Counted from the first letter of the stretch, positions 6,694 to 16,326 are shown. The stretch is DNA of 21,827 bases from an uncultured archaeon (GCA_964631415.1 CAZVZC010000034.1:1-21827), one strand, 5' to 3'. The notes: generated by a model not told the origin, from the letters alone. Translations and numbers: made by a program.

Positions 6694-7326
6694 TCACTTC
6701 GTTTCTGCGACGAACTTCCTTGCGAGCTCTACAGCACTGAGAGCATCTCTGCCAAAGGCGTCTGCGCCCGTGAACTTGACGGTCTCCTGATTGATGTCAC
6801 CGCCACCTATCATCACCTTGACCTTTTTCCGGATTCCTGCAGTCTTGAGTGCCTCAATGGTGGTCCGCATCACGTCATGAGTCGTCGTTATCAGCCCACT
6901 CAGTGCCAATACGCGTGCTCCAGTTTCTTTCAGTTTGTTCACGAACATCTCTGGCGCGACATCCTCACCAAGATCGTACACATCGAAGCCATTCGACTTC
7001 AGGAACGCCACTACCAAGTTCTTGCCGATGTAGTGGATGTCGCCCTTGACTGTGCCAATCACGACCTTTCCTTTTTCACTTGTACGTTGGCTGGAAAACA
7101 GCTTTGGCTCAAGCAGGGTCATTGCCTTCTTGAACACGTCAGCGGACATGACCAGCTCCACCAAGAAGTACTCGTTCTTGGAGAACTTGTCACCCACAAT
7201 GTCCATTCCACGTCTCAAGTCATCAAGAATCTGTACCGGTGCCGTTCCTGCCGACAGTTGCTTGTTCACCAGCTGCATCACTTTCTGATCATCAAGGTCG
7301 GCCATAGCCTGTGTCAGTTCGTTCAT
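6694..7326 (-). CDS. Methyltransferase cognate corrinoid protein (MtaC/MttC/MtbC-like; B12 cap + B12-binding domain)
   Basis: Cap domain (GMDIVGDKFSKNEYFLVELVMSA); DxHxxG motif GDIHYIGKNLV; LSGL and MIGGG B12-binding motifs; 210 aa. Confidence 0.93.
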   Translation of the reverse strand: MNELTQAMADLDDQKVMQLVNKQLSAGTAPVQILDDLRRGMDIVGDKFSKNEYFLVELVMSADVFKKAMTLLEPKLFSSQRTSEKGKVVIGTVKGDIHYIGKNLVVAFLKSNGFDVYDLGEDVAPEMFVNKLKETGARVLALSGLITTTHDVMRTTIEALKTAGIRKKVKVMIGGGDINQETVKFTGADAFGRDALSAVELARKFVAETK

Positions 7327-7479
7327 CCGCTTCTTGCCTCAGTCATTCGCGATACGTTGGCATTGAGCCTGCAAGCCGCTTGATTCGAGCCCAACCTTGT
7401 TCGCCGACTCAGTAGCCTTCATACAGACCCGGCCTGCTGAAGATTCGACTGGCATATATGTTTCATTGTGGATACCTGT

Positions 7480-9090
7480 CTAGACCGCACTTTGCGGCTT
7501 GGAATCCAACAAGGTAGCTTCCATGAACATCTGAGCAAACGAAGGATGAGTGGCGAGTTCGATGTAGTCAACCTCATCAATCAGCCGCTCTGCATGTGCC
7601 CTCTCCCGGGTTGACAGCAGCAGTCTCTTTGCACCCTCTCCCGCAGCATTGCCGACAGGGACTATCCTTTCAGGAGGAATTGGCGGAAAGAGGCCAATAC
7701 GAAGGGCGCTCTCAGGGCGTAGGTAGTTGCCAAAAGCTCCAGCCAAGAACAAGAGCTCGATGTCTTTAGGCCGAACACCACAGATTTCCATCAGCACGCT
7801 AGTACCTGCAGATATTGCCGCCTTGGCGAGCTGGACTTGCCTCACATCACTCTGCGTGAAGACGATGCGCGTTTCTGTATCGGAGTCTTCTGACTCGGTG
7901 AGGACATAGCAGAGACCATGTTCGCCATGAGTGACTCTGGGCGAGGGATACATTCGTCCTCTTGCATCTACGATACCCACCCTTCTAAGCTCGGCAACAG
8001 TGTCCAGAATCGCTGAACCGCATAGTCCCCGGGGAGAGCTCTCACCTATTACGGAGAGATCCGGCGGGCATTCAGGACTGGCAATATGTACGTGTTCTAT
8101 CGCACCATCTTGTCCTCTCATACCATGGGTGATTCTTGCTCCCTCAAACGCCGGACCAGCAGCTGCGGAACAACAGACCACCTTCTGGTTGTGTGCCAAC
8201 ACAATCTCTGCATTAGTACCGATGTCGATGCCCAAGATGGTACCCTCCGCTGAATCTAAGCCCTGGGAGATGATGAATCCCACTGTGTCACCTCCCACAA
8301 AGCCTGCGATGTTGGGTGCGATATATGCTTCAGCCGAACCGACGGACTTCAGGCCAAGCGATTCAGCGCTAGAAGCCATTGAATGCCGCATAAGTGGCTT
8401 GTAAGGAGCAAGTCCTAGAGTCGAAACATCCAAGCCCAACAGAAGGTGATGCATTGCAGTGTTACCGACAATCGAAAGCCGGGACACGGCTTCTGGCGGG
8501 AATGCCGCTGTTGCCAGCAGTAGCGCGACAAGCTCGTCGATGCAAGATAGTATTCTCTCTCTGAGGACCTTCCCGTCACTCTCTGCACGGGTCGCGAAGT
8601 CTATCCGCGACATGACATCCTCGCCGAAAGCGATTTGGGGGTTTAGCGTGGCGGCCTGTGCGAGTTGAACTCCTGTTCCAAGGTCCATGAAGTAGGCGAC
8701 CACGGTTGTCGTGCCAAGATCGATGGCCACACCCTTCTGGCCTACCAGACCCGGGTCGCGCTGGCTTCTCATCGGTCTGGACTTGCCGCTTGTGAGTATC
8801 TTCGCCTGTCCCGTCTGCAGAAGAATGATTCGCGTTCTTCTGTCAACCACATGCTCGCAGGCTAGACGAAGCCCCATAGCTAACTCAGATGGAGAGAGAT
8901 GATGTTGATCCTTCTCTGTCGCGATAGGAACGGGTCGAAATGCAACCCTGCATTTGCCGCAGGTGCCCTGCCCGCCGCAGTCTGACGGAATGAACAGGCC
9001 AAGACTTCGTGCCGCCTCAAGGATACACGTCGCTGAATCCACCGAAACGCTGTATCCTGAGGGTTCGAAGATCACGACATGTTTGGGCAC
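7480..9090 (-). CDS. ATP-dependent reductive activator of corrinoid proteins, RACo/AcsV type (N-terminal [2Fe-2S] + ASKHA/DUF4445)
   Basis: CGGQGTCGKC...RLAC ferredoxin motif; IDLGTTT, NPQIAFGEDVMSRI, GNTAM, GFVGGD, DIGTNAE, AAGPAFEG, GLCGS, LAGAFG, GNAAGEGA; AGGTGA RBS overlapping the upstream stop. Confidence 0.93.
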   Translation of the reverse strand: MPKHVVIFEPSGYSVSVDSATCILEAARSLGLFIPSDCGGQGTCGKCRVAFRPVPIATEKDQHHLSPSELAMGLRLACEHVVDRRTRIILLQTGQAKILTSGKSRPMRSQRDPGLVGQKGVAIDLGTTTVVAYFMDLGTGVQLAQAATLNPQIAFGEDVMSRIDFATRAESDGKVLRERILSCIDELVALLLATAAFPPEAVSRLSIVGNTAMHHLLLGLDVSTLGLAPYKPLMRHSMASSAESLGLKSVGSAEAYIAPNIAGFVGGDTVGFIISQGLDSAEGTILGIDIGTNAEIVLAHNQKVVCCSAAAGPAFEGARITHGMRGQDGAIEHVHIASPECPPDLSVIGESSPRGLCGSAILDTVAELRRVGIVDARGRMYPSPRVTHGEHGLCYVLTESEDSDTETRIVFTQSDVRQVQLAKAAISAGTSVLMEICGVRPKDIELLFLAGAFGNYLRPESALRIGLFPPIPPERIVPVGNAAGEGAKRLLLSTRERAHAERLIDEVDYIELATHPSFAQMFMEATLLDSKPQSAV

Positions 9091-9101
9091 GTGTGCGTCA
9101 C

Positions 9102-10007
9102 CTAGCCAATCTTGAAACGGGGGTGTTGACGGTCGGGGCGGATCCTCTTCTCAAGAAGAACTCCCGAAAGGGCTGTGTCAATCATTGCCACTGATGGAAA
9201 CACCACGGGGGCGTGCTTGACAGGGCCATACAAGACAAAGTCAGCGCCAAGCACAACGGGCATTAGACTCGACCCAACAAGAGCTGGCATCTTGGCCTCC
9301 TTTCCGAACTTCGGAACGAGGCCACTCCACATGTTTACTGCATTATGAGCCCCACACCCGACTGGCAGCCCGTGTTTCTCTTTCAGGAGTTGCATCGCTC
9401 TGCATGCCAAGCCGAGTGTCAACAGGTCCACCACGCCTGTGTCAATCAACACGTTGGTCACTCCCGCCCTTGCGGCTTTGGCTATGAGGACATCTGCTGT
9501 TTCAACCCTCTTCATCGCGGAGGCCATGGCTTCCCTTGAGAATGCGAGAAGGACTGCGTTCTTCAGCTTGCTCTCCTTCATCTTATCGTAGATTGCGTCG
9601 CTAGTTTCAGATGCGAGTGAGTTCAGCATGACTCTGTCCAACAGGCCGGCTTCGCGCGCGAAATCAATTCCCGATAGGTTCACCTCTTCTGAACCAGAGC
9701 CATCGATGAGCAAGGGCATGTCAGTGAGATCTGCAAGCAATGACAGGTATTTCCTGATCGCCGCTGATGATGAGGCGACGACATCCAACATGCTCGGGAG
9801 CCCAGTCTTCTCAGAAACCTCAATTAGTGCCTGAAGGGTTTTCTCGGTTTCAGACGTGTCTATCTCCCCTGTCTTGGAGTCAAGGACAAGCTTGTCCTTC
9901 GAGTAGAAGATAGAGCCGATGAGGACAGTCGGCGCAAGTCCCGGTGTCCCACCTATCTTCACGCCGTGAATCTCAAGAGTCTTCTGCTGTGTTGTGTAGT
10001 CGAACAA
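9102..10007 (-). CDS. mtrH: MtrH/MtgA-family pterin (H4MPT/H4F):corrinoid methyltransferase
   Basis: VKIGGTPG..PTVLIGSIFY, LIDTGV, PVGCGAHNA, GADFVLYGP are typical of the MtrH family; no other mtr subunits are adjacent. Confidence 0.9.
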   Translation of the reverse strand: MFDYTTQQKTLEIHGVKIGGTPGLAPTVLIGSIFYSKDKLVLDSKTGEIDTSETEKTLQALIEVSEKTGLPSMLDVVASSSAAIRKYLSLLADLTDMPLLIDGSGSEEVNLSGIDFAREAGLLDRVMLNSLASETSDAIYDKMKESKLKNAVLLAFSREAMASAMKRVETADVLIAKAARAGVTNVLIDTGVVDLLTLGLACRAMQLLKEKHGLPVGCGAHNAVNMWSGLVPKFGKEAKMPALVGSSLMPVVLGADFVLYGPVKHAPVVFPSVAMIDTALSGVLLEKRIRPDRQHPRFKIG

Positions 10008-10239: not shown

Positions 10240-10938
10240 TTGTTGCTCAAGATCACCTACTTCGGTCAGACATCTTTCAGACTGGAGTCCAAGGAGACCT
10301 CTGTCCTGTTGAATCCAGGAACGTGGGACGGCAAACCAGTGGTACCCGAAAGCCACGACGTCCGAATCATTGTGGCGACAAACCAGATGGACGATGCAAT
10401 CGGCAATGCGACCGCAATCGCTGCAAGGTCCAAGGCATGGATACTTGGTGATGAACAGACAGTCGAAAAGGTGAAGGCACAGGGCGGCAAGCCTTGGCTT
10501 CTCCATGTTCTGAAGGGCGAGGAGCCCTATCAGATTCCAGGACTGAAGATTACACCACATTCTCTTCAGAGACGAGACACAAAGACGGGTGATAAGATTC
10601 AGAATCTGGGTCTGTACATCGAGATGGGAGGCATGAAGGTTTCCTATCTGGGCGACACAATAGTCCGGGGTCCGTTCGAGCATTTGCAGGCAGATGTCCT
10701 CATTGTGCCGGTAGGGGATGGAGAGGTGTTTGCCGTCAAGGATGCTGTCAGCCTCTGCGTCGACTCAAAGCCTCGGATAGGCATCCCCATGAGATGGACC
10801 ACACCAGAACAGAAGACCAAGTTCGCCAAGTACGTGGAGCAGTTTGTCGGTGGGACGACACCTATGCTCATGGAACCAAAGCAGACCTTGGAGATCCAAT
10901 GGGTCGCAGGCAACGAGTTCAGGTACAAGTTGTCCTGA
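10240..10938 (+). CDS. Metallo-beta-lactamase-fold protein (UPF0173/Lactamase_B_3-like), probably catalytically inactive
   Basis: KITYFGQTSF..LLNPG, YLGDT, DVLIVPVG and IPMRW give the family fingerprint, but THxHxDH reads TNQMDDA. Confidence 0.85.
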   Translation: MLLKITYFGQTSFRLESKETSVLLNPGTWDGKPVVPESHDVRIIVATNQMDDAIGNATAIAARSKAWILGDEQTVEKVKAQGGKPWLLHVLKGEEPYQIPGLKITPHSLQRRDTKTGDKIQNLGLYIEMGGMKVSYLGDTIVRGPFEHLQADVLIVPVGDGEVFAVKDAVSLCVDSKPRIGIPMRWTTPEQKTKFAKYVEQFVGGTTPMLMEPKQTLEIQWVAGNEFRYKLS

Positions 10939-11017
10939 TTCCGTCCCGCGAGTCGAAGCAGTCCGGAGCGACATGAGCCCGAAAGGGTCGGCAGTGGGAC
11001 AGGCAGGTGAGCCATAG

Positions 11018-12799
11018 TTGAGTCAACAGAAGACAGTCATAATCGACCTGGAAGAAACTGAGAAGAGCCGCTTGGGAGAGATGAGCGAGCTTGCATCAGC
11101 AGAGGGATCAGGTGTTCTCAGTGTCAAGAACGTTTCAGCGCAGAATCGCATATGGAACGTCAGAGTACATCTAGGTGACAGCCGGGCCGGGACAAGTATC
11201 CAAGACCAGATGCTGTCAGCTGGCGAGATCGATGCTGGTGCCAAGTGGACTACCAGCTATGGTATCACAGTCAGGGCCCCGGTTCTGAAGCTTATTGAGA
11301 TTTACGACACGTGCAGCACTGTGGCAGCAGAGAAAGCCCACTGGGCCTACGTGCGTGGCAAGGAAAACCCCGTCAGAATCACACTGCATGTCAAGAACGA
11401 AACTGATGGTCAGATTGACAGCCTCATCCTCAACAAAGCAATCCCTCCCGAGCTCTCCAAGGTCAAGGTTGAGAGTGTGAAGTCTGGCACTGCCAAGTTC
11501 GATGAGGGAACTCGACAGGTCGTTTGGAAAGACTTCGTGATATATCCAAGGGAAGAATCCACTCTAGTGCTCATGGCTGTCGGCAGAGTGGATGACGTGG
11601 CGCAGAGAAGCGCAGGTGAGGCCGTCATTTCATATAGAGCCGAGGGCCAACAGAGGTCTTCGCTCAGTCCAGACATGACCGCGCTGACTGAGTTTCTCAG
11701 CGGAATAGAAACCTCCGAAACGGAGCCGAACCACTGGGACTGCACGCTTGAGTGTTCAAATGAGAGCGACCTCATGGTACGACTAGACAGGGCACAGGTG
11801 TTTCTTGCCCCCGAGAAGGGCGGCGAGAAGCGAAAAATGATTGACGAAACTCCACACATAGAGATGAAGCCGAAGCAGTCATGGAGCTCGGCCTTCGATG
11901 TCGACAGCAAGTCTCCACCGAAGTGTACGCACGATGTGGTCTACACTCCGATGAGGGTCATCAAGAAGAGAGTTCTTGGAACCATAAGCAAGACACCTCA
12001 GATGATACCAGTCTTCAGCATCGACTACAAGAAGACCTTCGATCCTCCCGAGGTCAATAGCTTTGACAAGACTCCCGTTGAGGTCACCATTGAAGTCACC
12101 AACAATGGAACTGCGAAACTTAATGACATAGAGATTGAGGACAGCCTTCCAGATGACGTGATGCCACCCAAGAAGGAACACATCACGGTCTGGGTAAGAG
12201 GTAAGGAGTACAAGGGCGGATACACAGTGACGGTCACTCCTGACGATCAAGACCCTGAGAAGCCTCACAAGCTGAGGTTCAAGATCGCCGGCATGAAGGA
12301 TACAGGCGGTGAACTGCAGCCCGGTGAGTCCGTGAAGGTGAACTATGCAGTAATGGCCTGGAGGAGTCGACCAGAGAAAGAGTATCAAAGCCCCATTCAC
12401 TGCTTGGCAAACACGTATCCAGTGGGTATCCCCGCAGAAGCAGCCAGCGCGCCTGACGGTCACAAGTTGGGCGTGGTATATCGGAAGCGGCGCATTGGCG
12501 CAAAGAAGGCAATCAACAAGGGTGGAAAGACAGGAGAGTACGTCGTCGTATTGGTCATTGAGAACAAGGGCGAAGTCACTGTGGAGAATGTGAAGGTGGT
12601 AGACTGGGCCCCTGCAAGCTTCAAGTACGTATCCTCGGACCCGCGCGAGGAGGAACCCAAGGTTGTCCTTGGCAAGGACGGGACCCAGATGATATGGACT
12701 TGGGCACGGATGAACCCCGGGGACAAGAAGTCATTACGCATCACGGTCAGGGGAGAGGGCGAGTACGAGCGACGCGAGCCCGAAGTGACCTCTGACTAA
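11018..12799 (+). CDS. Multi-beta-sandwich protein: N-terminal mu-homology-domain (MHD)-like region followed by two DUF11-like Ig domains
   Basis: 593-aa ORF with AGGTGA RBS at 11005-11010; no signal peptide or TM segment visible; repeated hxhxN...hxDxhP...W...hxPGE Ig motifs; N-terminal segments resemble the mu-adaptin C-terminal domain (see findings). The coding call is firm; the product call is tentative. Confidence 0.7.
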   Translation: MSQQKTVIIDLEETEKSRLGEMSELASAEGSGVLSVKNVSAQNRIWNVRVHLGDSRAGTSIQDQMLSAGEIDAGAKWTTSYGITVRAPVLKLIEIYDTCSTVAAEKAHWAYVRGKENPVRITLHVKNETDGQIDSLILNKAIPPELSKVKVESVKSGTAKFDEGTRQVVWKDFVIYPREESTLVLMAVGRVDDVAQRSAGEAVISYRAEGQQRSSLSPDMTALTEFLSGIETSETEPNHWDCTLECSNESDLMVRLDRAQVFLAPEKGGEKRKMIDETPHIEMKPKQSWSSAFDVDSKSPPKCTHDVVYTPMRVIKKRVLGTISKTPQMIPVFSIDYKKTFDPPEVNSFDKTPVEVTIEVTNNGTAKLNDIEIEDSLPDDVMPPKKEHITVWVRGKEYKGGYTVTVTPDDQDPEKPHKLRFKIAGMKDTGGELQPGESVKVNYAVMAWRSRPEKEYQSPIHCLANTYPVGIPAEAASAPDGHKLGVVYRKRRIGAKKAINKGGKTGEYVVVLVIENKGEVTVENVKVVDWAPASFKYVSSDPREEEPKVVLGKDGTQMIWTWARMNPGDKKSLRITVRGEGEYERREPEVTSD

Positions 12800-12852: not shown

Positions 12853-13203
12853 TCATTCTGATTCTTCTCTTTCTAGCTCACTGAGCTCTCTTCTTGTTGC
12901 CTCAAGCTCAGCATCAATGTCTTCAAGCGGCACGTAGTCTGTTTCGTCATCAAGTGTGTGTGTGTCAAGCGTATAGAGGACTTTGAAACCTGCCAGAGTC
13001 TTATGTAGTGCATTTGAGATCTCTATGATTGCACTTCCAAGCTCTGACTCTGTCATGTCAGTGGGAGACTCGTGCTTGTAGATGAAGTCATATGCGCCCC
13101 TCACTGGGGTGAAGCCAAGCCCGACCAGTTTCGCAATCACTGTGGAAGGACTTGCTCCCTCACTGTTGAACCATACTGAAACTCGTGTGACGTACTTTGC
13201 CAT
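12853..13203 (-). CDS. Conserved archaeal hypothetical protein with an acidic C-terminal coiled-coil tail
   Basis: FNSEGASPS...LGF.P.RG.YDF.Y resembles a small conserved archaeal family (recalled, not searched); GAGGT RBS favours ATG 13203; 116 aa. Confidence 0.8.
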   Translation of the reverse strand: MAKYVTRVSVWFNSEGASPSTVIAKLVGLGFTPVRGAYDFIYKHESPTDMTESELGSAIIEISNALHKTLAGFKVLYTLDTHTLDDETDYVPLEDIDAELEATRRELSELEREESE

Positions 13204-13251
13204 GACCAAGACCTCGTTGAGCAGGAATACGTGAACAGCTTTCGGTTTTTC

Positions 13252-14370
13252 CTATAACCTTTGCTCAGGATTGGACTTGAGGTCATCATGGACCAGAAGA
13301 GAAGAGTCCTCATGTTCCAGTATGTGTCGCCACAGCGGCAGACACTCACAGTCAACTCCTCCCAGATCAGTGATCTCCTGCGTCAGCGAGAACGAGCGGA
13401 CTGATGCGGTCAGCACAGCATCGCACTTGCCGCAGTTGTGAGTCCCCCGACCCTTTCCAGCTGCCACGGGGTCACACACCACGTTGACTGATCTTGGCAG
13501 TGACTCTCGAGACCGTCTGAGGACTTCCAGAACTGTCCAGAGCCATGGTGGTCTGTACTCACCCCTTGACCACATCCTCTCAACCAGAGTGTACTTCTGA
13601 ACGTTCACAGGATTGAACGAAACAGTCGTGACGCCCATGGTTGCGGCATCTTGTGCGGTCTTGATAGAATCAAGCAGAGCATCCCTCTCCGTCAAGAAGG
13701 GCGGCTTCAACAAGACGTACGCACGTATGCCGATGTCGTGAGCACGAGCGGTTTTCAATGCCCTTCTGAAGCCCTCAGTCGAGAAGCCCTTGTTGATGCA
13801 TATTCGGCGGATGAAGTCACTACTGCTTTCCAAGCCAATGCCGAGCTCAATCTCACGTTCACCTAACGCATTCCGTAACTGAATCATGTTCTCATCGGAA
13901 ACGAATTCGGGCCTCGACTCGACCACGACCTGCCGGATGCGCTGGTCATTATTCAGGCGTGCGAGGATGGAAGCACGAGCTGACAGCGGCACCTCCTCCG
14001 GGTCCAGGAAACTGCCGCTTGTGTAGAGCTTGACGGACAGAGGATCCTGTGCGCCATCCAGCTTGGACATAGCGCGGGCGAACTGCTGCTCCAACTGCTC
14101 TGAAGAGGGCTGCTCCCGAGTACCGTCTAGCAGATAGCTGCACATCGTACATCCACCTGAAGGTCCCTGTGCATGCGCACAACCCTGAGTGGCGAGTACG
14201 ACTGACAATGCATTTCCGACTTCAGAAGAGATACGCGATTGAGATGTCCAAGCCGCAGAGGGCGCTTCCTGCGCATGTGTCCGACGCCTTGCCAAGGAGT
14301 CCTTCCTAGCACCCACTGACTCCTGAATGATGATCCGATGCAAGTCCTCTAATAGATCACTCGTACCCAA
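13252..14370 (-). CDS. raSEA: Archaeosine biosynthesis radical SAM enzyme RaSEA (TIGR01210 family)
   Basis: GCAHAQGPSGGCTMC cluster motif, KLYTSGSFLD, VESRPEFV, IGLES, YVLLKPPFLTE, YRPPWLW, GTHNCGKCD...CEC; 3 nt downstream of arcS. Confidence 0.92.
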   Translation of the reverse strand: MGTSDLLEDLHRIIIQESVGARKDSLARRRTHAQEAPSAAWTSQSRISSEVGNALSVVLATQGCAHAQGPSGGCTMCSYLLDGTREQPSSEQLEQQFARAMSKLDGAQDPLSVKLYTSGSFLDPEEVPLSARASILARLNNDQRIRQVVVESRPEFVSDENMIQLRNALGEREIELGIGLESSSDFIRRICINKGFSTEGFRRALKTARAHDIGIRAYVLLKPPFLTERDALLDSIKTAQDAATMGVTTVSFNPVNVQKYTLVERMWSRGEYRPPWLWTVLEVLRRSRESLPRSVNVVCDPVAAGKGRGTHNCGKCDAVLTASVRSFSLTQEITDLGGVDCECLPLWRHILEHEDSSLLVHDDLKSNPEQRL

Positions 14371-14373
14371 ACT

Positions 14374-16326
14374 TCATCCCACCTTGTGCCTCACCGACAC
14401 CGCGCGGCCCCTCTCAAACTCGCACATCTCGCGGCCAGACATCTCACTTCGACCCACTCCAAGGACATCATTATCGGCGCCAATGATCACTACCTCATCT
14501 CCCGGCCTTATCCCGGGGTCAGCCTCTCTGACCGCGACTGCAAACACGGAACCACCTTCTATGTGGTCACCGTCAAAACGGACCCAGTACCGCTTCAGCG
14601 GGGCAATGCGGCGCGCTCCCTCAATCGTGAGTGACAACGAACCTGTCGCTCCAACGAACGCACAGGTCTGCGCGCCGTCAACACTACAGAGGATTGTCCC
14701 GTAGGGCTTCCCACGTAGCACAGAGGTCTCTGGCACCAGTACCTCGCCTGCTCCGGATCCAAACTGATAGTCGGCCGTGGCGCGAAGTATTTCTCCTAAC
14801 TCATTACGAGCCCCGGCCGGAAGTGACAGTACGTTTCTCAGATCGCTCAGGGTTTCTCTCAGTCCTTCCAGAGACTGCTTACTGGTGGCCGAATGGCCGT
14901 CTGTCGTGTATACTATACTCTGTTCAATCCGAGACTCGGCCGCTTTCACTGCTTCCTCATACCCTTCCGCCACGTGAGCCACTACCACGACAGACCTGTC
15001 GAACTTCGCCAAGTGGGCAGCCAACGCGTCCCCTGCTATGCTGACTTCCTCGGCGTCCCAGTCACCAGTGACCGGGACGTCATAGACAGATGCGGGGTAT
15101 GCCCGCTCGAGCTCTCTCGGCACAACACCGAGTGGAGAAGTGACCACGGCTTCGGCAGCGGAGTTCCTTGATCTTTGAAGCCCGGAGTCAATGGCTTGCG
15201 TGAATAGCTTGTGCGACTTCGAGTCGGAATAGGGCTTCCGGGCTGAACACGGCAGAACCAGGACCAGCTTCTTGTGCTTAGGTGGAGCATACCTTGACGC
15301 AACATACTCACGGAACCGCCTCACAACAGGTGAGTTGTAAGACTCGGGACCGATGAGTGGCAGGACACCGCCTCCAGATGTGCTGGTGAACTCCTCAAGG
15401 TAGCCATACAACCTCTTGTCAACCACTCTCAGAATGGTGGCATGTGCAGTGCTCGAGTGGGTCATGGACTCGACCAGGTACCTTAGATGACCGGCATGGG
15501 CAGCTTGGACACTCTCGGACAGAAGAGACTCATACACGCCCACATTGTGACTAATGAGAGTGCTATCAGCAATCTGACTGGAAGTGTCTGCCATGCTCCG
15601 CCAAGACATACACGCATGACAGGGGCAGTATCTCAGCTCACCAGACCCTGCGACGTCCTCAGATCCCATTGGCCAAAGACGAACTTCATGAAACGCAGCG
15701 CCTGCCGCTCGGCCTACATCGATGAGGTCGAACCCTAGATAGCAGAGCATTGGGATCGCACTTGGATTCACCCTCCCGAGCGCCAATGCCAGCCAGTTGC
15801 AGGGAAGACGCGCGCGCAAGGATAATGACCTCATATCCTCCGGACCCAGACTGCCGTCAATGAGAAACGCAGCGGCTCGAACACCTAGCCTTGCGAACTC
15901 AGGGACGAGTGAGTCCATGTCCTCTGGACGAAGCCGCGGCGGGATTCTCACTATTGCACGAGATGCGGCGAGATCCTTTCCATGCTGATTGAGAACACTC
16001 AGTTGCTCGCGCAGCAATGCCATGGCAAACTCGGGACCCAGACTGGAGGAGGGTGGCAGCGATGGCAGTAGGACAGCTTCCTCAGACCTGATACGATCGA
16101 TAAGACCAGAATCAATCGTTGCTAGGGAAGGGAGTACGACTATCCTTTGCTTGGACTCTGGTTCGGCATCCCGCCCAGCGGTCCAATATGTGAGTTTCAC
16201 CTCAGGAATACTAACACCTGCAATCATTGTAGGGGTCGCCATAGACAGGGTTCCCAACTTCAGATTGCCAAAGCGAGCAGGACCATCATGGCCACGGTCA
16301 ATGAGAAACTCCATCTCTACGATCAC
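14374..16326 (-). CDS. arcS: Archaeosine synthase subunit alpha ArcS (degenerate TGT barrel + catalytic domain + PUA)
   Basis: HDGPARFG N-terminus, Zn site CPCHAC...HN, signature PCSARKPYSDSKSH (PCx3KPYx2Sx2H), TSPLGVVPRELE, YDVPVTGDW, C-terminal PUA (DPGIRPGDEV...GVG); GGAG RBS. Confidence 0.93.
   Translation of the reverse strand: MIVEMEFLIDRGHDGPARFGNLKLGTLSMATPTMIAGVSIPEVKLTYWTAGRDAEPESKQRIVVLPSLATIDSGLIDRIRSEEAVLLPSLPPSSSLGPEFAMALLREQLSVLNQHGKDLAASRAIVRIPPRLRPEDMDSLVPEFARLGVRAAAFLIDGSLGPEDMRSLSLRARLPCNWLALALGRVNPSAIPMLCYLGFDLIDVGRAAGAAFHEVRLWPMGSEDVAGSGELRYCPCHACMSWRSMADTSSQIADSTLISHNVGVYESLLSESVQAAHAGHLRYLVESMTHSSTAHATILRVVDKRLYGYLEEFTSTSGGGVLPLIGPESYNSPVVRRFREYVASRYAPPKHKKLVLVLPCSARKPYSDSKSHKLFTQAIDSGLQRSRNSAAEAVVTSPLGVVPRELERAYPASVYDVPVTGDWDAEEVSIAGDALAAHLAKFDRSVVVVAHVAEGYEEAVKAAESRIEQSIVYTTDGHSATSKQSLEGLRETLSDLRNVLSLPAGARNELGEILRATADYQFGSGAGEVLVPETSVLRGKPYGTILCSVDGAQTCAFVGATGSLSLTIEGARRIAPLKRYWVRFDGDHIEGGSVFAVAVREADPGIRPGDEVVIIGADNDVLGVGRSEMSGREMCEFERGRAVSVRHKVG

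Follow-up and report, generated by a model that had tools for sequence, protein, structure and literature searches.

We found that a 593-amino acid protein encoded by an uncultured archaeon contains, judging from its predicted structure, a genuine mu-homology domain (MHD) formed by residues 2-327 and interrupted by an Ig domain at the tip of subdomain A. The gene is on a 21,827-nucleotide stretch of DNA that was analyzed as a whole (the window). On the same modeling, the full protein appears to be a soluble, cytosolic rod of five beta-sandwich domains (Table 1). Its closest named homologs are from Thorarchaeota; they are 593-612 amino acids long and 62-95% identical.

The mu-homology domain and its setting

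The open reading frame starts with TTG in frame +1, and all of the protein segments quoted in the initial annotation are in this frame. That annotation ended the feature at position 12010 (331 amino acids). The frame continues to 12799, orthologs have 593-608 amino acids, and the 262 C-terminal residues that had been overlooked carry the predicted site for a partner protein. A scan of the locus for promoters and terminators did no better than chance.

The 593-residue protein has no signal peptide or transmembrane helix. Its 19-residue hydropathy maximum is 0.82, and a hydrophobic segment is also absent from the 120 closest homologs. That is, the signal peptide or anchor that marks exported proteins, as in those with CLIPPER/DUF11 domains, is missing. 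There is also no longin domain N-terminal to the MHD, which begins at residue 2. The initial annotation had described the protein as probably cytosolic, without longin domain, signal peptide or transmembrane helix, and these results agree with that description.

Table 1. Features of the MHD protein gene and its upstream neighbor (window positions)
Feature	Position	Strand	Description
Whole ORF	11018..12799	+	All-beta; predicted MHD (A+B) with inserted Ig, then two CLIPPER/DUF11 domains; five sandwiches
GGTGA, Shine-Dalgarno-like	11006..11010	+	7 nt 5' of TTG; putative function, from sequence
MHD subdomain A, first part, aa 2-87	11021..11278	+	D10 = mu2 D176, E13 = E179, K37 = K203
MHD subdomain B, aa 88-211	11279..11650	+	CLIPPER/DUF11 homolog; swapped buried pair E94/K140; G200 at Asn site
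Strand returning to subdomain A, aa 212-225	11651..11692	+	I9-A222 covariation
Ig-like insert, aa 226-311	11693..11950	+	Replaces short loop 5' of last MHD strand; S40-D251 = top covarying pair
Last MHD strand, aa 312-327	11951..11998	+	Equivalent of peptide-binding strand in mu2
D4, aa 333-488	12014..12481	+	CnaA-type pilin/CLIPPER fold; K339 and D375 kept; Asn site = I460; predicted partner loop 350-353
D5, aa 491-593	12488..12796	+	DUF11/CLIPPER; conserved K497/D529/E587; predicted partner site 521-523, 563-568
UPF0173-type metallo-beta-lactamase-fold (MBL) gene, upstream	10240..10938	+	Predicted to bind the MHD protein; without the metal motif in Thorarchaeota

Searches with the single sequence did not find an MHD. 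Pfam gave DUF11 and DUF7507 and no match to PF00928 (Adap_comp_sub), the profile that had been proposed as a check, and phmmer found no MHD in the PDB. Across the family, PF00928 matched 53 of 94 homologous N-terminal halves (E<=0.01; best E 1.5e-11). DUF11 matched 65 of the 94, and the PF00928 matches are mostly in subdomain B, a region that DUF11 also matches. Examples of full-length homologs scored 21-31 bits against PF00928, for which the cut-off is 31.6. When a profile of the family was compared to the PDB, the best matches were mu3A (E 9e-5), delta-COP (9e-4) and mu2 (1.2e-3), and the match to delta-COP covers both MHD subdomains.

The AlphaFold2 model is all-beta (pLDDT 96.6). Residues 2-327 of the model align in sequential order with residues 168-435 of mu2 (Z 17.1, rmsd 3.2 A, 226 residues aligned), and all of the top 49 rows of the structural alignment are entries that contain an MHD. 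About 100 residues of this range of the model have no counterpart in mu2, which fits an insertion at residues 226-311; an extra beta domain before the last strand had been suspected from the sequence and is confirmed. A wide structure search that did not use Foldseek gave MHDs in the top eight rows, led by mu2, mu4, mu3, delta-COP, SGIP1 and mu1. With Foldseek and the whole model, long multi-Ig proteins came first (rmsd ~40 A), and the best target TM-scores, 0.57-0.64, were those of MHDs. Structural comparison with known MHDs, a further check that had been proposed, thus matched mu2, delta-COP, SGIP1 and Syp1. In the model the chain runs through the two sandwiches in the order A-B-A, and the last strand completes A.

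Because a structure predictor may remember mu2, we also checked the topology by residue covariation, using 384 sequences (Neff ~175; 54,615 pairs; the signal is noisy). Four pairs, T6-M312, T14-R318, E15-G321 and R18-T326, rank in the top 120 of the 54,615; running in parallel at an offset of 304-308, they tie strand 1 to the last strand like the rungs of a ladder (nominal p 4e-5). I9-A222, S198-P327 and F226-Y309 also ranked high, and S40-D251 ranked first. Noisy as it is, the covariation agrees with the interdigitated fold of an MHD, independently of AlphaFold. The interdigitated topology of subdomains A and B that the initial annotation proposed is borne out by this pattern and by the sequential alignment to mu2.

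The upstream MBL-fold protein and other neighboring genes

The gene directly upstream encodes an MBL-fold protein of the UPF0173 family (E 3e-20). It was directly upstream in 36 of 36 loci from Thorarchaeota and in 5 of 5 loci from two further Asgard families. No adjacent MBL gene was found in the remaining lineages examined (most Asgard lineages and Thermoplasmatota), so the MBL-fold protein is not a general partner of the family. Its identity is 55-76% within Thorarchaeota but 41% in the sister family. The HxHxDH motif of active hydrolases is gone from the Thorarchaeota proteins: the first His is Asn in 26 of 29, the second is variable, and the last is Ala in 27 of 29. The motif is kept in the two other Asgard families. 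From its sequence, the Thorarchaeota protein would be a catalytically dead pseudoenzyme. Two genera of Thorarchaeota lack both genes; in three of their genomes the flanking genes are 0.6-1.6 kb apart on one contig. The two genes could have been lost together in one block deletion of neighbors.

The two proteins are predicted to form a complex, with the MBL-fold protein docking on the rear domains D4 and D5. The ipSAE for the pair was 0.65 and that of the best control was 0.00; the ipSAE mark is attained by 58 of 80 solved complexes and by 2 of 110 mismatched pairs. The prediction runs share at least 94% of their contacts, and the pLDDT of the partner is at least 89. The predicted interface (loop 350-353 of D4; 521-523 and 563-568 of D5) does not involve the MHD. 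In lineages with an adjacent MBL gene, D350, K351, P353, R564 and P567 never vary, whereas in the others they do. Positions of this kind make up 5 of 19 at the interface and 8 of 574 in the rest of the protein (Fisher p 2e-5), a comparison in which the sequences from outside Thorarchaeota are five and related, so that kin are not independent and lineages are few. These results support binding and do not show it.

We tentatively favor a model in which the 593-residue protein is a cytoplasmic scaffold, with its rear domains holding the pseudoenzyme and the free edge of its MHD binding linear motifs other than YxxPhi. The MHD would then work outside any heterotetramer of the AP/COPI type. D4 and D5 would use the 350-353 loop and R564/P567 to grip the co-encoded, dead MBL-fold protein, leaving the MHD free. 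Its free edge (strand 1, with the conserved D10, and the last strand) would bind short linear motifs by strand addition, as eukaryotic MHDs do. The Ig insert adjoins the position of the peptide strand in the model and may block this predicted edge. The protein would thereby link a client to the pseudoenzyme or, in other lineages, to fused HEAT repeats or to helical or acidic extensions.

Several other genes are near the MHD gene and its relatives. On the minus strand of the window, between a HerA cluster and the MBL gene, three genes (6694-10007) resemble, by eye, those for a corrinoid protein, an iron-sulfur corrinoid activator and a methyltransferase; this trio is absent from the related loci L031, L066, L067 and L070. 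On the other side (12853-16326, minus strand) there are, in Thorarchaeota, a conserved unannotated gene for a 118-residue protein, a radical SAM gene and a DUF5591/TGT/PUA gene. The latter two are presumably an archaeosine synthesis pair. In one Asgard family (L059-L062), the gene is within ~4 kb of one actin-family gene, or of two, and of several genes for short helical proteins. The copies in Poseidoniales (800-1100 amino acids) have a Pro-rich N-terminus and an acidic C-terminus (L072:3721-9336 and other loci). At most of these loci, the gene has a PF03029 ATP/GTP-binding gene as its head-to-head neighbor and is followed closely downstream by a gene of the EMC3/TMCO1 family.

CLIPPER-type domains and the cargo-binding face

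DUF11 has been renamed CLIPPER, a domain of adhesin stalks in which a Lys-Asn bond is catalyzed by Asp (bioRxiv 10.1101/2025.04.25.650565). The 593-residue protein matches DUF11 in Pfam with 50 bits, and D4 is similar in structure to SpaD (Z 13.8), to the CLIPPER structure 9ifr (Z 11.2) and to pilin shaft domains (Z 13-14). That is, the fold is a CnaA-like Ig fold. K339 and D375 of D4 align with K199 and D241 of SpaA, and they covary. At one stage we considered K339, D375 and N465 to be an intact isopeptide triad. N465 is conserved in 94% of Thorarchaeota. Covariation and an alignment to GhpA place I460, five residues before N465, at the Asn site facing K339, and we dropped the triad. On these sequence grounds, a canonical isopeptide bond in D4 is unlikely. 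In D5, K497 faces E587, and position 587 is Glu or Asp in nearly all orthologs. K497, D529 and E/D587 are near-invariant in Thorarchaeota and Thermoplasmatota and are at the positions of the CLIPPER triad (window 12488-12796). It is possible that K497 and E587 are part of a buried salt-bridge network, or that they form an unusual, non-canonical Lys-Glu/Asp cross-link in a cytoplasmic protein.

Subdomain B of the MHD is also a CLIPPER homolog by profile-profile comparison. The HHalign values are 97.9% for B and D5, 97.1% for D4 and D5, and 93.1% for B and D4. In B the buried pair is swapped: the Lys site is occupied by E94, the Asp site by K or R (position 140) and the Asn site by G200. We infer an archaeal origin for the MHD in nested Ig domains of the CLIPPER/DUF11 type, with eukaryotes later keeping its two sandwiches as a core and adding a longin domain by fusion; the homology between subdomain B and pilin-like CLIPPER domains suggests where the MHD fold came from.

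It is possible, though doubtful, that the protein is purely a structural Ig rod (a spacer, or the subunit of a lattice or filament). Its MHD would then be an ancestral unit of nested Ig domains that binds no ligand, with the pseudoenzyme serving as a cap or in assembly. Five Ig-like sandwiches, three of them CLIPPER homologs, are consistent with such a rod, as are the likeness of D4 to pilin shafts, the retained buried Lys/Asp pairs, and the even conservation along the protein (0.72-0.86 in Thorarchaeota). In contrast, the near-invariance of D10 in Thorarchaeota, on what is the cargo-binding face by equivalence to mu2, speaks against this reading. So do variable N- and C-terminal fusions that resemble effectors (HEAT, NACHT and glycosyltransferase), which fit an adaptor.

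The tyrosine pocket of mu2 is formed by F174, D176, K203, W421 and R423 (PMC2133128). The N-terminal register to mu2 is ungapped, with I8 at F174, D10 at D176 and K37 at K203; structure and profile alignments agree with the placement of D10 and K37 that had been made by eye. If the last strand is aligned without gaps from its end point (327 to 435), W421 is equivalent to about R313 and R423 to about I315, a register uncertain by 2-3 residues. The initial annotation was right that W421 is not kept: there is no Trp at positions 308-327 in any of the 185 homologs checked, and no register yields one. Its own register for this strand is probably off by about three.

Of the five pocket residues, D10 alone is conserved in Thorarchaeota (127 sequences): D10 is present in 99% and K37 in 14%, and position 313 is Arg or Lys. 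At the Phi-pocket positions (mu2 L173, L175, V401, L404, V422 and K420), V7 and I9 are hydrophobic, P218 is at V401, and V314 is variable. Asgard orthologs from outside Thorarchaeota have D10 in 65%, K37 in 47% and Tyr or Phe at position 313 in 61%. In the Thermoplasmatota copies D10 is lost and position 313 is Pro. Orthologs of ~700 amino acids (P0131-P0143; L045-L065) have an unannotated C-terminal extension of ~110 residues, and their pocket (D10, often K37, Y/F313) is more like that of mu2 than is the pocket in Thorarchaeota. Since the equivalents of F174, W421 and R423 are gone and K37 is rare in Thorarchaeota, classic YxxPhi binding by the 593-residue protein is unlikely, and most of the mu2-like cargo pocket is missing. 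By analogy, the MHD could possibly bind some other motif; according to PDB titles, solved MHDs of delta-COP and SGIP1 have WxW and DPF peptides bound.

The pocket also bears on an improbable alternative, that the protein is a true proto-adaptor whose MHD binds tyrosine-type sorting motifs in the tails of membrane proteins and joins separate longin and HEAT proteins in a vesicle coat like that of AP complexes. Such a role would suit the mu2-like fold, the conservation of D10 and, outside Thorarchaeota, the frequent K37 and Y/F313. All five AP domains were found in Asgard archaea by Eme et al. (PMC10307638), some paralogs have HEAT repeats, and D5 is faintly like the gamma-adaptin ear (E 0.006). 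However, Thorarchaeota lack three of the pocket residues, the family extends to Thermoplasmatota where D10 too is lost, and the HEAT matches in paralogs are of the PBS-lyase type and not Adaptin_N. Beside the Asgard orthologs examined, there is no conserved gene for a longin, HEAT or GTPase protein, and a member fused to a longin domain was found neither here nor by Eme et al.

Distribution, significance and known systems

We found the MHD-rod family in 259 of 301 Asgard genomes, including 70 of the 76 from the taxonomic family of this archaeon. It is missing from several near-complete genomes, so the protein is not essential everywhere. A second member was not found in the archaeon's own genome (85% complete), in which the gene is single-copy. 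The family is also present in 43 of 151 Thermoplasmatota genomes (Poseidoniales among them); 42 of the 43 match at E below 1e-90, nearly all over the full length. These copies, together with one in a MAG labeled Methanopyri, do not fit a protein confined to eukaryotes and Asgard archaea, and they weaken the earlier description of it as a eukaryotic-signature protein. In an unrooted FastTree tree, the Thermoplasmatota copies cluster with a second subfamily, to which Asgard paralogs with N-terminal extensions (some of them HEAT) also belong. Without a root, we claim neither a donor nor a direction of transfer.

Three of the paralogs (P0185, P0199 and P0217) have PBS-lyase-type HEAT repeats N-terminal to the MHD rod, and one member of their cluster is labeled Thorarchaeota. 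In P0203 and P0261, all or part of the rod is fused with a NACHT-like ATPase domain and a family 2 glycosyltransferase. Some paralogs have an N-terminal domain of ~100 residues with no significant match to longin or anything else; its Atlas feature score to the PF00928 cluster was 0.77, below the usable level.

Two five-domain homologs, P0204 (L071:7001-8992) and P0209 (L130:10001-12052), have an N-terminal hydrophobic segment and a Pro-rich linker. With the relative labeled Methanopyri archaeon, they form one branch of the tree. Their sequences suggest that export or anchoring of the same rod is possible. These homologs, and the usual role of DUF11/CLIPPER domains as adhesin stalks, are what would be expected if the protein studied here were at the cell surface or in the envelope, like other CLIPPER/DUF11 proteins, and exported without a classical signal peptide. 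We consider this highly improbable: the protein and the great majority of its homologs have no signal or transmembrane segment, D4 has another residue at the isopeptide Asn site, and the predicted MBL partner also has no N-terminal hydrophobic segment. Still harder to credit, and largely refuted, is a row of independent tandem DUF11/Ig domains that merely resembles an MHD (the outcome named at the outset as a refutation), for although the query alone lacks a PF00928 match and the family's matches are mostly in the DUF11-like subdomain B, a single sequential alignment pairs 226 residues with mu2, the profile match to delta-COP spans both subdomains, and strand 1 and the last strand covary.

An MHD protein has already been published from Asgard archaea, as a candidate family. 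Eme et al. 2023 (PMC10307638, Supplementary Table 3) listed Asgard Adap_comp_sub (PF00928) proteins, including Thorarchaeota orthologs, as candidate eukaryotic signature proteins on the basis of profile matches, called their distribution sparse, and found no fusion to longin. By eye, their Thorarchaeota sequences are colinear with residues 1-325 of our protein. Common motifs mark these, and those listed as Jord-, Hel-, Hermod- and Lokiarchaeal, as evident orthologs or paralogs, and one Lokiarchaeal sequence starts identically to our homolog P0213. In UniRef, the Heimdallarchaeum members are named 'MHD domain-containing protein'. A literature search on the mu homology domain in Asgard or other archaea returned nothing beyond Eme et al. 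We found no paper on the architecture of the family, its link to CLIPPER, its members outside Asgard or its partner, and the main text of two later structural surveys does not discuss it. What we add to Eme et al. is the presence in 259 of 301 Asgard genomes and in Thermoplasmatota, the fold, the nested architecture, the state of the pocket and the predicted partner.

The origin of cargo recognition by vesicle coats is an open question in eukaryogenesis. The MHD-rod family is the best structural candidate for an archaeal source of the MHD, and it is near-universal in Asgard rather than sparse, and not limited to Asgard. A specific soluble two-protein complex is predicted, which makes the function of the family directly testable. 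In the boldest version of the favored scaffold model, which we regard as rather unlikely, the eukaryotic cargo-binding MHD goes back to a rod in the cytoplasm of archaea, made of nested Ig domains of the CLIPPER/pilin type. This rod would already be a motif-binding adaptor in Asgard, its rear recruiting a pseudoenzyme or a fused HEAT module. If so, AP/COPI cargo selection would have had a forerunner in this single-chain rod, with the edge of the MHD reading peptide signals.

Each part of this system resembles something known. The upstream protein belongs with the UPF0173 metal-dependent hydrolases (TM1162, Igni_1254) but differs from them in having lost HxHxDH in Thorarchaeota; none of the solved relatives listed has an MHD protein as a partner. 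D4 is like the CLIPPER and CnaA-type domains of pilins (SpaA, SpaD, BcpA, RrgB; PDB 9ifr; Z 11-14), and D5 and subdomain B are homologous to them. In contrast to those domains, these three are apparently cytoplasmic, and their Asn sites (I460 in D4, E587 in D5, G200 in B) would not give the canonical Lys-Asn bond. The MHDs of delta-COP, SGIP1/FCHo and Syp1 share the fold (Z 13-15) and are in proteins of different architecture. Unlike the mu subunits of AP complexes, to which it is 11-14% identical, the archaeal protein has no longin domain, an Ig insertion of 86 residues, two extra domains, and no equivalents of F174, W421 and R423. Like the MHDs of AP-1, AP-2, AP-3 and AP-4 mu, it has two interdigitated sandwiches (Z 15-17), with the positions of D176, E179 and K203 in register.
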